Source of the DNA: Fidelibacterota bacterium
Lineage (GTDB): Bacteria > Fidelibacterota > Marinisomatia > Marinisomatales > TCS56
Length of the DNA stretch: 15,141 nucleotides
Direction: 5' to 3'
Assembly: GCA_043822705.1 (NCBI GenBank)
Contig: JBDRBK010000149.1
Coordinates: 1-15,141 of the forward strand
The translations under genes and the position numbers were made by a program. The notes below the pieces were generated by a model, which saw only the letters and a list, made by a program, of their open reading frames with translations, was not told the DNA's origin and ran no database searches. Of this stretch, positions 7,893 through 10,965 are shown piece after piece (position 1 is the first letter of the stretch; every line of letters begins with the position of its first letter).

Positions 7893-8019
7893 TCAAAATA
7901 CTTCGATCCCCATTGGTTTGTTGGGACAACTCTCAAGAGTTATCCCGACCGATAAAATCCGGGGATTTTTCACCAGCGGTAAGTATATTGGCGTGATAAA
8001 TTTTCAAGTCGAGGACAGC

Positions 8020-8919
8020 ATGCTCAATGAAATCCATTTTCTACTGACCTACACCTGTCTAAATGAATGTGATCACTGTTTTCTATATTGTGGGCCGGAG
8101 TCCAAGGGCACGTTCACGGTCGAACAACTTCGTCAGGTTTTCGTCGAAATTGCCAAAATTGACTCGATCGACAAAGTGTATTTCGAAGGCGGCGAAGCCT
8201 TCCTCTATTACCCCCTACTGCTGGAAGGCATTCGTCTGGCCCGAGCCCGGGGATTGGCAGTGGGCATCGTCACCAATTCCTACTGGGCCACTTCGGTGGC
8301 CGACGCCGAGCTGTGGCTCAAACCGCTGGTGGAACTGGGTATCGCTGATATTTCCATGAGCGATGATTCATTTCATTTCAGCGATGAAAAAAATCCCGCC
8401 AAATTCGCCCTGCAGACCGCCAAAAACCTGGGGATGGCCGCCGGCGCAATCTGCATCGAAGAACCCACGGTCGCACCAAATCCCACGGCGATGGGCGAAG
8501 CGGTGGTTGGCGGCGGCGTCATCTTCCGCGGCCGGGCGGTGGAAAAACTATCACAGGGATTGCCCACCCGACCGGCCGGCGAACTGACCACCTGCCCCTT
8601 CGAAGATCTGGAGAATCCCGGCCGGGTCCATCTGGATGCCTTCGGCCACCTACACCTCTGTCAGGGACTTTCAATGGGCAATATCTGGAAAACACCATTG
8701 TCGGAATTGGTGAAAAATTATTCGGCCGACCGGCACCCAGTCTGCGCACCGCTGCTGGCTGGCGGACCCCAACGGCTGGCACAGGCCCATAGTCTGGACA
8801 GCACCGGCGGGTATATCGCCGAATGCCATTACTGCTACGAGGTGCGAAAACAACTGCTGGACAAATACCCGGATTATCTGGCGCCACGGCAGGTTTATGG
8901 GGTGCAAGATTTATTGTAG
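8020..8919 (+). CDS. Radical SAM protein with C-terminal SPASM/twitch-like cysteines
   Basis: CxxxCxxC motif (CLNECDHC), FEGGEAF, VTNSYWA and C-terminal TCP...HLC...ECHYC. Start moved from TTG 7918 to ATG 8020 because GAGGA lies at 8011-8015, giving 299 aa. Confidence 0.9.
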   Translation: MLNEIHFLLTYTCLNECDHCFLYCGPESKGTFTVEQLRQVFVEIAKIDSIDKVYFEGGEAFLYYPLLLEGIRLARARGLAVGIVTNSYWATSVADAELWLKPLVELGIADISMSDDSFHFSDEKNPAKFALQTAKNLGMAAGAICIEEPTVAPNPTAMGEAVVGGGVIFRGRAVEKLSQGLPTRPAGELTTCPFEDLENPGRVHLDAFGHLHLCQGLSMGNIWKTPLSELVKNYSADRHPVCAPLLAGGPQRLAQAHSLDSTGGYIAECHYCYEVRKQLLDKYPDYLAPRQVYGVQDLL

Positions 8920-9017
8920 GGACAATACATGTGTTATCCCTACCCACAATTACTTTTATTGGCGCTCAACGGAATAATATATTATCAATGTAGCGACGAT
9001 ACATGTGTCGTCGCTAC
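8916..9017. repeat. Two 28-nt GTAG...CTAC REP palindromes (family A)
   Basis: GTAGGGACAATAC-AT-GTGTTATCCCTAC (8916-8943) and GTAGCGACGATAC-AT-GTGTCGTCGCTAC (8990-9017). Confidence 0.85.
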
Positions 9018-9079
9018 CGCAGATATTTAGGAATGGTATCTGTGGGCGGTTCGGCCCACAAAAATTTTACTTTTTGGAT

Positions 9080-9109
9080 AAAAAAAACCGCCGAATAACC
9101 GGCGGTTTT
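9080..9109 (-). terminator. Rho-independent terminator, strongest on the minus strand and possibly bidirectional
   Basis: A8 (9080-9087), CCGCCG, 6-nt loop, CGGCGG, then a T run. On the minus strand this is a GC hairpin followed by U8. Confidence 0.85.
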
Positions 9110-9160
9110 CCAACGATTGATTGATCCAAATGGAATCAGACACCTAATCGCTTGACGGTG
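9080..9160 (-). ncRNA. Candidate ~80-nt small RNA complementary to the adjacent tRNA-like gene
   Basis: Bounded by a predicted promoter (9193-9165) and the terminator, with no ORF. Its 5' part, CGUCAAGCGAUUA...UCCAUUUG, is complementary to the tRNA anticodon arm and D-loop. Transcription is inferred, not shown. Confidence 0.45.
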
Positions 9161-9164
9161 GTAA

Positions 9165-9193
9165 AACTTACCTGCTATGGAGAATTAATGCAA
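9165..9193 (-). promoter_or_regulatory. Putative sigma70 promoter for the candidate sRNA
   Basis: Minus strand TTGCAT (9193-9188), 17-nt spacer, TAAGTT (9170-9165). The predicted start near 9159 is just before the complementary block. Confidence 0.45.
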
Positions 9194-9208
9194 GTAAAAT
9201 AACCTTAG

Positions 9209-9282
9209 TGCCCAGGACCAGATTTGAACTGGCATCTAATCGTACGTCAAGCGATTATGCTATCCATTTGCACCACCTGGGC
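9209..9282 (-). tRNA. Atypical tRNA or tRNA-like RNA, anticodon GAC (nominally Val), CCA not encoded
   Basis: Folded by hand: GCCCAGG-UG-GUGC-AAAUGGAUA-GCAU-A-AUCGC-UUGACGU-ACGAU-UAGAU-GCCAG-UUCAAAU-CUGGU-CCUGGGC-A. It retains U8, A14, G18G19, A21, U33, the A15-U48 pair and the T-loop consensus. There is a C31-A39 mismatch, and CUA follows in place of CCA. Confidence 0.8.
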
Positions 9283-9372
9283 ACTATATTCTTCGGTATT
9301 TCCGTTAAAGTTCCATAAACAGTGTTGAAATATCAAGATGTAAATTTATGTATCTTGTTATAGATTCGGCCC

Positions 9373-10965
9373 ATGCAGGATAGCTATGATTATATTATAA
9401 TTGGTTCCGGTTTCGGTGGCGCGGTGGCGGCCCTGCGGCTGGCGGAGAAAGGTTACCGGGTGGCGGTGCTCGAACAGGGGCGGCGCTACCGTCCCCAGGA
9501 TTTTCCAAAACGTAACTGGAATCTGCGTAAATTTCTGTGGCTGCCGAAAATCGGGCTCTACGGCATCCAGGCCCTGACCCTGCTGAAGGATGTGTTCATC
9601 CTCCACGGCGCCGGTGTGGGCGGCGGCAGCTTGGTCTACGCCAACCAGCTTTTAATCCCCCCCGATGACGTCCTGGACGATCCATCCTGGGGACAACCGG
9701 ACTGGCGCGTTACTATTCTACCCTATTATGACAAAGCCCGACGGATGCTGGGAGCCACCCCGGCCCAGGAAATCACCGTGGCCGATGAGCTCTTGAAGGA
9801 ATGCGCCGCCGATATCGGCCGGGGCGACACCTTTCACGTCAACGAAGTCGGTATCTATTACGGTGAACCGGACCTGACCGTTCCCGACCCCTATTTCGAC
9901 GGCGAAGGTCCCGAGCGCACCGGCTGCATCGCCTGCGGTGCCTGCATGACCGGCTGCCGCCACGGCTCCAAAAACACGCTGGACCTTAATTACCTCTACC
10001 TGGCGGAACAATTAGGCGTGACGATCATCCCGGAAACCAGAGTCAGCGACGTCCGTCCGGGCGGTAACGGCTATATCATTACGACCAGAAATTCCGTGGG
10101 ACTGATACCCCGCCGGCGGCGATTCCAGGTCGGTGGTGTGATTTTTTCCGGTGGCGTGATGGGTACGGTGAAACTACTGCACCAGTGCAAAACCAGGGGA
10201 TCGTTGGCCTCAATATCTGCTCAGTTGGGAAATATCACCCGTACCAACAGCGAAGCGCTGCTGGGGGTGATCGCCCGCAAGAAGGACGTGGATTATTCCG
10301 CTGGGATCGCCATCACATCCGGCGTCCACCCCGACGACAACACCCAGATCGAAACCGTTCGCTACGGCAAAGGCCACGACGCCATGGCCCTGCTGACCAC
10401 CCTGCTGGTCGGGGGCGGCAAACCTTGGCCGCGGCCGTTGCGCTTCCTGGGGAATATTGTGCGGCACCCGCTGACCTTCCTGCGTTTCCTGGTTCCCTTC
10501 GGCTGGGCCCGACGGGCCACGATTCTGCTGGTGATGCAAAAGATCGACAATTACCTGCGGCTGGAATATAAGCGGCGCTGGTGGCGCCTGGGCGGTCGTT
10601 CCATGAACTCCAATTGGCACACGGCCAAGAAGGTGCCGTCGTATATTCCCGTGGCCAACGAATTCGCCCAACGAATGGGCCAAAAAATCAATGGCCGGCC
10701 CTCCAGTTGCCTGCCGGAAGTATTATTCAATACATCTACTACCGCCCATATTTTAGGCGGGTGCGTAATGGCCGATTCACCGGCGGAGGGCGTGATTAAC
10801 CATAATGGTAAAATTCATGGCTACGATAATTTGTACGTAATCGACGGCTCGGTGATCCCCGCCAACCTGGGTGTTAATCCCAGTCTGACGATCACTGCCG
10901 TGGCGGAATATTTGATGGATAAATTTCCGGAAAAAGATGGTCATGGCACGGCAAGTTCACCATGA
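9373..10965 (+). CDS. GMC-family FAD oxidoreductase, cholesterol oxidase (ChoD)-like
   Basis: 530 aa with IIIGSGFGG FAD-binding motif, GAGVGGGSLVYAN, CIACGACMTGC...KNTLDLNYL, TAHILGGC and NLGVNPSLTI. The substrate is not established. Confidence 0.9.
   Translation: MQDSYDYIIIGSGFGGAVAALRLAEKGYRVAVLEQGRRYRPQDFPKRNWNLRKFLWLPKIGLYGIQALTLLKDVFILHGAGVGGGSLVYANQLLIPPDDVLDDPSWGQPDWRVTILPYYDKARRMLGATPAQEITVADELLKECAADIGRGDTFHVNEVGIYYGEPDLTVPDPYFDGEGPERTGCIACGACMTGCRHGSKNTLDLNYLYLAEQLGVTIIPETRVSDVRPGGNGYIITTRNSVGLIPRRRRFQVGGVIFSGGVMGTVKLLHQCKTRGSLASISAQLGNITRTNSEALLGVIARKKDVDYSAGIAITSGVHPDDNTQIETVRYGKGHDAMALLTTLLVGGGKPWPRPLRFLGNIVRHPLTFLRFLVPFGWARRATILLVMQKIDNYLRLEYKRRWWRLGGRSMNSNWHTAKKVPSYIPVANEFAQRMGQKINGRPSSCLPEVLFNTSTTAHILGGCVMADSPAEGVINHNGKIHGYDNLYVIDGSVIPANLGVNPSLTITAVAEYLMDKFPEKDGHGTASSP

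Follow-up and report, generated by a model that had tools for sequence, protein, structure and literature searches.

The window analysed here is the whole of a 15,141-nucleotide (nt) contig (C149; JBDRBK010000149.1 of GenBank assembly GCA_043822705.1) from a metagenome-assembled genome of the phylum Fidelibacterota (3.34 Mb, 218 contigs, 42 tRNA genes; estimated contamination 6%), and its minus strand bears a tRNA-Val(GAC) gene whose 3′ trailer holds, in two short blocks, the complement of the anticodon arm and the D-loop of that same tRNA. With moderate confidence, we interpret the locus as a recently acquired, strain-specific orphan tRNA-Val(GAC) unit, in which the patchy inverted self-copy in the trailer is a leftover of rearrangement that has no selected regulatory role. 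An earlier note, made from the sequence alone, had suggested instead a tRNA/anti-tRNA module, in which a separately promoted small RNA (sRNA) acts as inhibitor or antitoxin of a non-canonical tRNA, with a cis trailer that refolds the pre-tRNA as the fallback. The features on which the argument turns are the following:

9208-9282, minus strand: tRNA-Val(GAC), 75 nt, class I, called by ARAGORN and by Rfam RF00005
9245-9257, minus strand: target block 1, tRNA positions 25-37, the 5′ strand of the anticodon stem and the loop through GAC-G37 (inverted repeat I4, 13/13)
9263-9275, minus strand: target block 2, tRNA positions 8-20, the 5′ strand of the D-stem and the D-loop (inverted repeat I6, 11/13; perfect 8-mer at 9263-9270)
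9145-9157, minus strand: trailer block 1, perfect 13-nt complement of the anticodon arm, including a GUC codon (I4)
9122-9134, minus strand: trailer block 2, complement of the D-loop and D-stem, 8/8 over 9127-9134 and 11/13 (85%) overall (I6)
9206-9216 / 9276-9286, minus strand: 11-bp inverted repeat (I7), the 7-bp acceptor stem plus 4 pairs
9167-9198, minus strand: predicted hairpin H1, 9-bp stem and 14-nt loop, with TTGCAT and TAAGTT in its arms
9112-9152, minus strand: hairpin H2, predicted when the trailer is folded alone (9078-9207), containing most of both antisense blocks
9080-9111, minus strand: intrinsic-terminator-like hairpin, CCGCCGG-UUAU-UCGGCGG with an A-tract/U-tract extension, then U8, ending the tRNA-plus-trailer unit

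All coordinates given in the earlier note match the sequence, and an inverted-repeat search confirms both the 13-bp inverted copy (9145-9157 and 9245-9257, 100% complementary) and the 8-bp colinear copy (9127-9134 and 9263-9270), which lies within the longer 11/13 match. The complement lies on the tRNA's own strand, so that an RNA transcribed from 9207-9080 on the minus strand would be able to pair with the tRNA, as had been predicted. The two pairs of blocks are colinear, and the spacers between them are unrelated in sequence and differ in length, the trailer spacer measuring 10 nt and the tRNA spacer 5 nt. The complementarity is more than chance: mononucleotide shuffles of the 128-nt trailer reach a perfect complement of at least 13 nt to the tRNA in 28 of 300,000 trials, and when each of the 42 tRNAs of the genome is compared with the 150 nt on both of its sides, the other 83 tRNA-flank comparisons give complements of 5-9 nt against the 13 nt of the window tRNA's trailer. 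By our estimate, which is not a simulation, the joint occurrence with the colinear 8-mer is rarer still than that of the 13-nt block alone. Pairing beyond the two blocks, in contrast, is at chance level. With both blocks kept and the spacer and 3′ flank shuffled, the extended duplex (-37.6 kcal/mol) falls close to the shuffle mean (-38.9 kcal/mol, standard deviation 3.2), and 63% of the shuffles are equal or better; hence, there is no sign that an extended RNA duplex has been selected for. Likewise, duplex energies against the whole 150-nt flanks do not discriminate the window tRNA from the other tRNAs of the genome. The minus-strand RNAs form a more stable duplex than the plus-strand RNAs (-37.6 versus -30.9 kcal/mol), but we dropped this as a sign of RNA-level selection because shuffled spacers do equally well.

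The unit that carries these blocks is a singleton in the collections searched (see below) and is absent from the nearest relative. The surroundings of the spacer in which it lies are as follows:

7918-8919: radical-SAM gene
9373-10965: GMC oxidoreductase gene
8925-9384, unstranded: strain-variable block, for which a relative's contig has 83 other letters between 8924 and 9385

Three public DNA runs (X1-X3) contain parts of 8700-9700, and their contigs were aligned to 8400-10000. No RNA run with the locus is listed among the six runs, which has no bearing on expression. The 942-nt contig from X3 matches 8446-8924 with 50 differences (~90% identity) and 9385-9755 with 18 differences (~95%), and between the two, 83 unrelated bases replace 460 bases of the window (8925-9384); this relative thus has neither tRNA nor trailer nor terminator, and it is missing most of the palindromes resembling repetitive extragenic palindromes (REP). 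The contigs from the other two runs agree with the window at every position, X1 (255 nt) over 9059-9313 in the same orientation and X2 over 8902-9102, though X1 may be the genome's source sample and hence gives no independent confirmation. GMC oxidoreductase orthologs in three genomes of the same family, at 82-84% amino-acid identity, place the contig in its lineage, and in the same three genomes the radical-SAM gene is again the upstream neighbor (72-75% amino-acid identity). The spacer between the two genes measures ~120-235 nt in the three relatives versus 453 nt here, and the relatives' spacers contain no tRNA and cannot be aligned, with two exceptions: a palindrome that follows the radical-SAM gene and the ~15 nt that precede the start codon. 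In ten upstream regions of 4 kb each, ARAGORN likewise detects no tRNA, and the tRNA-plus-trailer unit is single-copy within its own genome. Elsewhere, the window encodes amidase, DUF1302, LolA-like, MMPL, TetR, aldehyde dehydrogenase, AlkZ-like and lipocalin proteins; no integrase, recombinase or invertase is found among the 10 largest open reading frames of the 15-kb contig, and no minus-strand gene lies downstream of 9080.

The tRNA unit also looks foreign when set against the rest of the genome, given how little it resembles the native tRNA of the same anticodon, its nearness to tRNA-Leu genes and the missing native upstream motif (see below). ARAGORN calls tRNA-Val(gac), at 9208-9282 on the minus strand, as the sole tRNA of the window, where it is also the one match that Rfam gives, and membership in the Rfam tRNA family (RF00005) is clear at 52.6 bits versus a gathering score of 29 over model positions 1-71, yet this score ranks 40th among the genome's 42 tRNAs. 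The other Val(GAC) copy, which is native and located on contig C13, scores 68.7 bits and has a very different sequence. The closest in-genome tRNAs are two tRNA-Leu genes, which share 57 of 75 positions with it, and 17 of the 18 positions of its D-arm match a tRNA-Gln of Danxiaibacter flavus (Chitinophagaceae). Its discriminator is A73, the CCA is not encoded, as is usual in this genome, and A35, C36 and A73 would correspond to the valine identity set. We considered and rejected a mistranslating tRNA derived from tRNA-Leu: the D-arm also matches tRNA-Gln, A35/C36/A73 presumably fit valine and nothing supports mischarging. The stems are regular (acceptor 7 bp, D 4 bp, T 5 bp; variable loop 5 nt), and in the ARAGORN drawing and Rfam alignment, the invariant and tertiary bases are all present (U8, A14, G18G19, U33, the purine G37, G53-C61 and the T-loop UUCAAAU, in agreement with UUCRANY). 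The sole irregularity is a C31-A39 mismatch that leaves a 4-bp anticodon stem, a trait reported for 5.6% of ~1.7 million bacterial tRNAs (PMC13092985). Of the claim that the tRNA is non-canonical, its divergence thus stands, whereas its full cloverleaf and usual invariant bases speak against the rest, and we regard it as a divergent, probably foreign tRNA-Val that is not clearly non-canonical.

Searches for relatives of the unit returned none. BLAST with the 213-nt or 313-nt unit recovers only 19-35-nt fragments in the 40 nearest genomes, in 306 others of the class and in 400 others of the phylum, with the best two candidates per genome scored in the latter two sets, and the best match in five genomes with a tRNA-Gln sharing the D-arm is 21 nt, with no homolog of the unit. 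A structured pattern (5′ part of the D-arm, UUGAC, T-loop) run against the GTDB species genomes yields 28 loci, none of which is Val(GAC): 22 are tRNA-Gln(UUG), in which the UUGAC of the pattern is the anticodon plus A37 C38, two are Ser, one is Lys, one is unassigned and two are not tRNA. The D-arm 20-mer occurs in two contigs of the JGI metagenomes, neither of which has a tRNA by ARAGORN; IMG/VR gives no match to four patterns; and blastn gives no match in phages and only a 30-nt terminator match in plasmids. The pattern scans demand exact matches and could overlook distant homologs. Thus, homologs of the kind whose comparison the earlier note had proposed are missing for both tRNA and trailer in the collections searched, and with a single locus there is neither conservation nor covariation with the target. 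As a separate observation from these scans, many of the pattern-matched tRNA-Gln(UUG) genes belong to closely packed arrays, each with 4-8 tRNA genes (L027, L031, L034, L039, L040; from Chitinophagales, Cellvibrionaceae, Exilibacterium and Desulfobacterales), that include tRNA-Ile(tat) and 77-79-nt "tRNA-Leu" calls and look like the accessory tRNA arrays of other bacteria. Two Patescibacteria genomes (L043, L044) display class-I-sized tRNAs (73-77 nt) called Ser(tga) by ARAGORN, with a short variable loop unusual for a serine tRNA.

With respect to how the unit is transcribed, the earlier note had placed a promoter between the tRNA and the antisense block. The string is present as written, with TTGCAT at 9193-9188, a 17-nt spacer and TAAGTT at 9170-9165, but each hexamer agrees with the consensus at only 3 of 6 positions, both hexamers lie in the arms of H1, and a scan with a threshold of 9/12 calls no promoter-like site on either strand of 8800-9500. 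Several native tRNA genes of this genome are instead preceded, at ~5-60 nt, by a motif of the form ~AAATTC, ~7 GC-rich bases and GCTTTTT (more fully, ~TAAATTC, ~7 GC-rich bases, then GCTTTTTA), as seen at tRNA-Gln on C94, tRNA-Glu on C129, tRNA-Asn on C211, tRNA-Lys on C55 and tRNA-Phe on C178. A loose pattern of this motif marks 11 of the 42 tRNAs and a tight version has 23 occurrences genome-wide; it is unlike TTGACA/TATAAT and, to judge from these sequences, may be the stable-RNA promoter of the lineage. It is missing from both strands of 8800-9500 and therefore precedes neither the tRNA nor the trailer. As no separate promoter is found, the simplest anatomy is one unit made up of the tRNA, a ~125-nt trailer with H1 and H2, and the terminator. 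The terminator-like element that the earlier note described is present in the sequence: its stem (9084-9093 / 9100-9109; inverted repeat I8) is perfect at 10/10, U8 corresponds to 9080-9087, and the GC-rich hairpin of 10-13 bp forms in the predicted folds of both the co-transcript and the trailer, even though a simple consensus terminator scan does not list it. It would equally close a tRNA-plus-trailer co-transcript. An Rfam scan of 8880-9400 at E <= 10 gives 22 matches, among which only the tRNA passes its threshold; as to a match with another described family, none is above threshold, and the sub-threshold sRNA and leader matches (rimP, Phe leader, frnS, RNAI at 16.5 versus 47 bits, and others) all fall on the terminator hairpin. 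Elsewhere in the genome, a terminator module that the window tRNA does not use, CGACAAACCCCTTTTCTCGACGAGAAAGAGGGGTTTTTT, a hairpin within a hairpin, is by eye near-identical after unrelated tRNAs on C30, C150, C165, C183 and C41 and after a tRNA fragment on C90.

We accordingly picture the history of the locus as follows. An orphan tRNA-Val(GAC) unit would have been gained recently in a fast-changing intergenic spacer, where the tRNA, its ~125-nt 3′ trailer and the Rho-independent terminator would form one minus-strand transcription unit. The "anti-tRNA" would then be no gene of its own, but a short, patchy inverted copy of the 5′ half of the tRNA (positions 8-20 and 25-37) embedded in the trailer, which most likely arose by a fold-back/template-switch duplication, or by recombination, at or before acquisition. 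The primary transcript would have two nearly isoenergetic folds available, one with the cloverleaf and the trailer hairpins and the other with the 5′ half of the tRNA paired to the trailer, and the complement would have no selected regulatory role.

The predicted folds of the 213-nt co-transcript bear directly on this. Its minimum fold pairs the 5′ half of the tRNA with the trailer at -73.9 kcal/mol (z = -5.67 versus shuffles), and with the cloverleaf enforced, the best fold reaches -71.8 kcal/mol. The two states are nearly isoenergetic, so the computation allows a bistable precursor and the fallback of the earlier note, a cis trailer able to refold the pre-tRNA, fits the anatomy in this model. 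For the tRNA alone, the cloverleaf is the minimum-energy fold (-24.2 kcal/mol), and it stays the minimum at all lengths of the growing transcript until the first antisense block is reached; the folding model leaves out tertiary contacts and modifications. Being transcribed first and locked by an 11-bp acceptor helix, the cloverleaf probably wins.

Several points weigh against a mere leftover. The complementarity consists of two perfect islands (13/13 and 8/8) around an unrelated spacer of unequal length, which is not the pattern expected if a recent inverted duplication had simply decayed neutrally, and the islands fall on the two exposed loops of the tRNA, the D-loop and the anticodon loop. 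The tRNA is intact and shows no sign of a decaying pseudogene. In the predicted fold of the trailer alone, the basal stem of H2 re-uses anticodon-stem sequence (GCGAUU / AAUCGU) and leaves CCGUCAA, the complement of the anticodon loop, unpaired, in a manner that would resemble the pairing seeds of antisense RNAs. The acceptor stem is extended by the leader UAGU, which pairs with A73 and the trailer CUA; this 4-bp extension compares with 0-1 bp in the 26 other assessable tRNAs of the genome and, as such an outlier, hints at an unusual precursor. Finally, under the nearest-neighbor model, the trailer-paired fold lies 2.1 kcal/mol below the cloverleaf fold.

These points would suit a selected cis device, a self-masking "pro-tRNA", in which base pairing of the co-transcribed trailer to the D-loop and anticodon arm of the tRNA it follows would keep the precursor inactive, or slow its RNase P and 3′ processing, until the trailer is removed, thereby throttling the output of a foreign and possibly harmful tRNA. 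We consider such a device unlikely. It would account for the near-isoenergetic folds (-71.8 versus -73.9 kcal/mol), a co-transcript that folds far better than its shuffles, complementarity far above chance that is perfect on the two loops most open to pairing, an anticodon-loop complement left unpaired in the trailer alone, and an acceptor helix whose extended length of 11 bp stands out among the 27 tRNAs assessed. It is opposed by the lack of any homolog of this one locus, and hence of conservation or covariation, by the chance-level pairing beyond the two blocks, by the want of any recognizable promoter for the unit at all, and by a cloverleaf that is transcribed first, is the minimum for the tRNA alone (-24.2 kcal/mol) and is favored further by tertiary contacts. 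That the locus is a self-contained tRNA/anti-tRNA module, in which the two loop-directed blocks, as part of the trailer of the acquired tRNA-Val or of a processing product of that trailer, cover the D-loop and anticodon arm and the tRNA becomes active once the trailer is removed or degraded, strikes us as distinctly improbable. We set lower, as very improbable, the separately promoted minus-strand sRNA of ~80 nt (~9159-9080), acting in trans as an inhibitor or antitoxin of the neighboring tRNA: the complement is on the right strand, with a terminator after it and the TTGCAT-N17-TAAGTT string just upstream, but that string is a 6/12 match within a region (8800-9500) where no site is called, its hexamers are tied up in the H1 arms (9167-9198), the native upstream motif is missing, no Rfam family but tRNA reaches threshold (RNAI 16.5 versus 47 bits), no homolog is known from the searches, and the tRNA has no evident toxic feature and carries what we assume to be the valine identity set. 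The separately promoted inhibitor of the earlier note is thus not sustained.

That the unit is an assembly artefact, or else a dead, unexpressed fragment, is in our judgment highly improbable. The genome is assembled from a metagenome with 6% estimated contamination, and no promoter is recognized for the tRNA; against this, Logan contigs of two runs reproduce 9059-9313 and 8902-9102 without a difference (even if X1 may be the source sample), the repeated blocks of 13 and 8 nt are too short for a fold-back chimera, the flanking genes fit the lineage (82-84% identity) and the tRNA is structurally intact. Scarcely credible, lastly, is a role at the level of DNA, with the 13-bp inverted repeats serving as recombination or protein-binding sites, for example as the ends of an 87-bp segment able to invert or as paired operators. 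The idea is suggested by the perfect match of the 13-bp arms, which are 87 bp apart, and by their place in a strain-variable spacer, but the window has no recombinase or invertase, the X1 contig (9059-9313) has the same orientation with no differences, and a pair of sites leaves the second colinear block unexplained. We also examined inversion of 9158-9244 by eye and rejected it, as the flip gives no alternative tRNA: there is no GCCCAGG upstream on the plus strand, and inversion would therefore destroy the tRNA without creating another.

The spacer around the unit has further features of its own. A 9-nt direct repeat, TTCGGCCCA (D8; 9050-9058 and 9365-9373; 11 nt long if one mismatch is allowed), flanks the stretch that runs from the terminator through the trailer and the tRNA to the block upstream, and the X1 contig begins at 9059, next to its left copy. 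We considered it as a target-site duplication and rejected it: about one such 9-mer repeat is expected by chance per 800 nt by our estimate, and the TAGATTC immediately left of the right-hand copy is conserved in relatives, which makes it a poor fit to a simple duplication. A perfect to near-perfect palindrome of 28-30 nt (GTAGGGACAATACA|TGTGTTATCCCTAC and a variant) lies behind the radical-SAM gene at 8915-8944 and 8989-9018 of the window. The same palindrome is seen on at least six other contigs (C82, C158, C40, C162, C136, C164), with the copy on C158 directly downstream of a tRNA-Thr, and the relatives G002 and G005 have a copy at the equivalent place behind the radical-SAM gene; judged by this distribution, it looks like a REP-type dispersed family. 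Between the palindromes and the terminator, there is a GC-rich hairpin (GTGGGC-GGTTCG-GCCCAC, 9034-9057), such that four consecutive stem-loops separate the radical-SAM gene from the tRNA unit.

If the trailer does mask its own tRNA, this would be the first such case known and would amount to riboregulation of a single tRNA by a dedicated, cis-encoded antisense partner, and it would point to a means by which bacteria hold in check foreign tRNAs with the potential to disturb decoding. We know of no other tRNA under the control of a dedicated antisense segment, and in the literature that we searched, we came across no account of a trailer masking its own tRNA, which is a weak statement. Under the reading that we prefer, that of an acquired orphan tRNA with a rearranged trailer, the locus offers a clean case, dated by its absence from a relative with 90-95% identity in the flanks, of tRNA-gene entry into a hypervariable spacer. 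It also cautions scans made from sequence alone, for highly significant self-complementarity beside a tRNA gene can occur with no sign of conservation. The tRNA-plus-trailer unit (209 nt, 9078-9286) is a small and directly testable construct.

Among known phenomena, integration footprints, the attachment-site (att) duplications, resemble the locus in that part of the tRNA sequence is repeated next to the gene, within a segment that varies among closely related strains. In a classic footprint, the 3′ portion of the tRNA recurs in direct orientation and an integrase is encoded nearby; here, the copy is inverted, derives from the 5′ half and is divided into two perfect blocks, and no integrase is found in the 15 kb of the contig. 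The same genome holds what appears to be a classic example on C90, where 825-889 gives a weak Rfam tRNA match (29.9 bits) that ARAGORN does not call: the match covers the 3′ portion of a tRNA-Asp (anticodon arm, T-arm and 3′ strand of the acceptor) with the native terminator cassette after it, which is what an att-type duplicate bordering an integrated element would be expected to look like. Quasi-palindrome template switching is a known source of short, perfect inverted repeats in patches amid unrelated sequence, and the 13-nt and 8-nt islands match its patchy pattern, although it is a mutational process rather than a system and one sequence cannot demonstrate it. The 3′ external transcribed spacer (3′ETS) RNAs of tRNA operons, exemplified by that of leuZ in Escherichia coli, are alike in being a segment between a tRNA and the operon terminator with a possible base-pairing role after processing. 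The 3′ETS of leuZ sponges sRNAs and is conserved among enterobacteria, whereas here it would be the tRNA itself that is bound, and no conservation is seen. With the T-box riboswitch, the locus shares the reading of a tRNA anticodon by a looped codon (here GUC) and a second contact with the tRNA body; a T-box, however, is an mRNA leader with 3-4-nt pairing, an elbow contact made by stacking and sensing of the tRNA 3′ end, while the present locus has no downstream gene and pairs over 13 + 8 nt, and the 22 Rfam matches at E <= 10 do not include RF00230. Kissing-loop antisense RNAs (RNAI/RNAII, CopA/CopT) are alike on paper, with complementary sequences in the loops or single strands of both partners, but they are transcribed from opposite strands with full complementarity to their targets, and at 16.5 bits versus a gathering score of 47, the trailer is not a member of the RNAI family. 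In its workings, the locus is least unlike an antisense/kissing-loop pair or a T-box specifier contact and is a member of neither; as an orphan, acquired tRNA gene with a self-complementary trailer, it is most likely a rearrangement footprint, whose novelty is low on present evidence.

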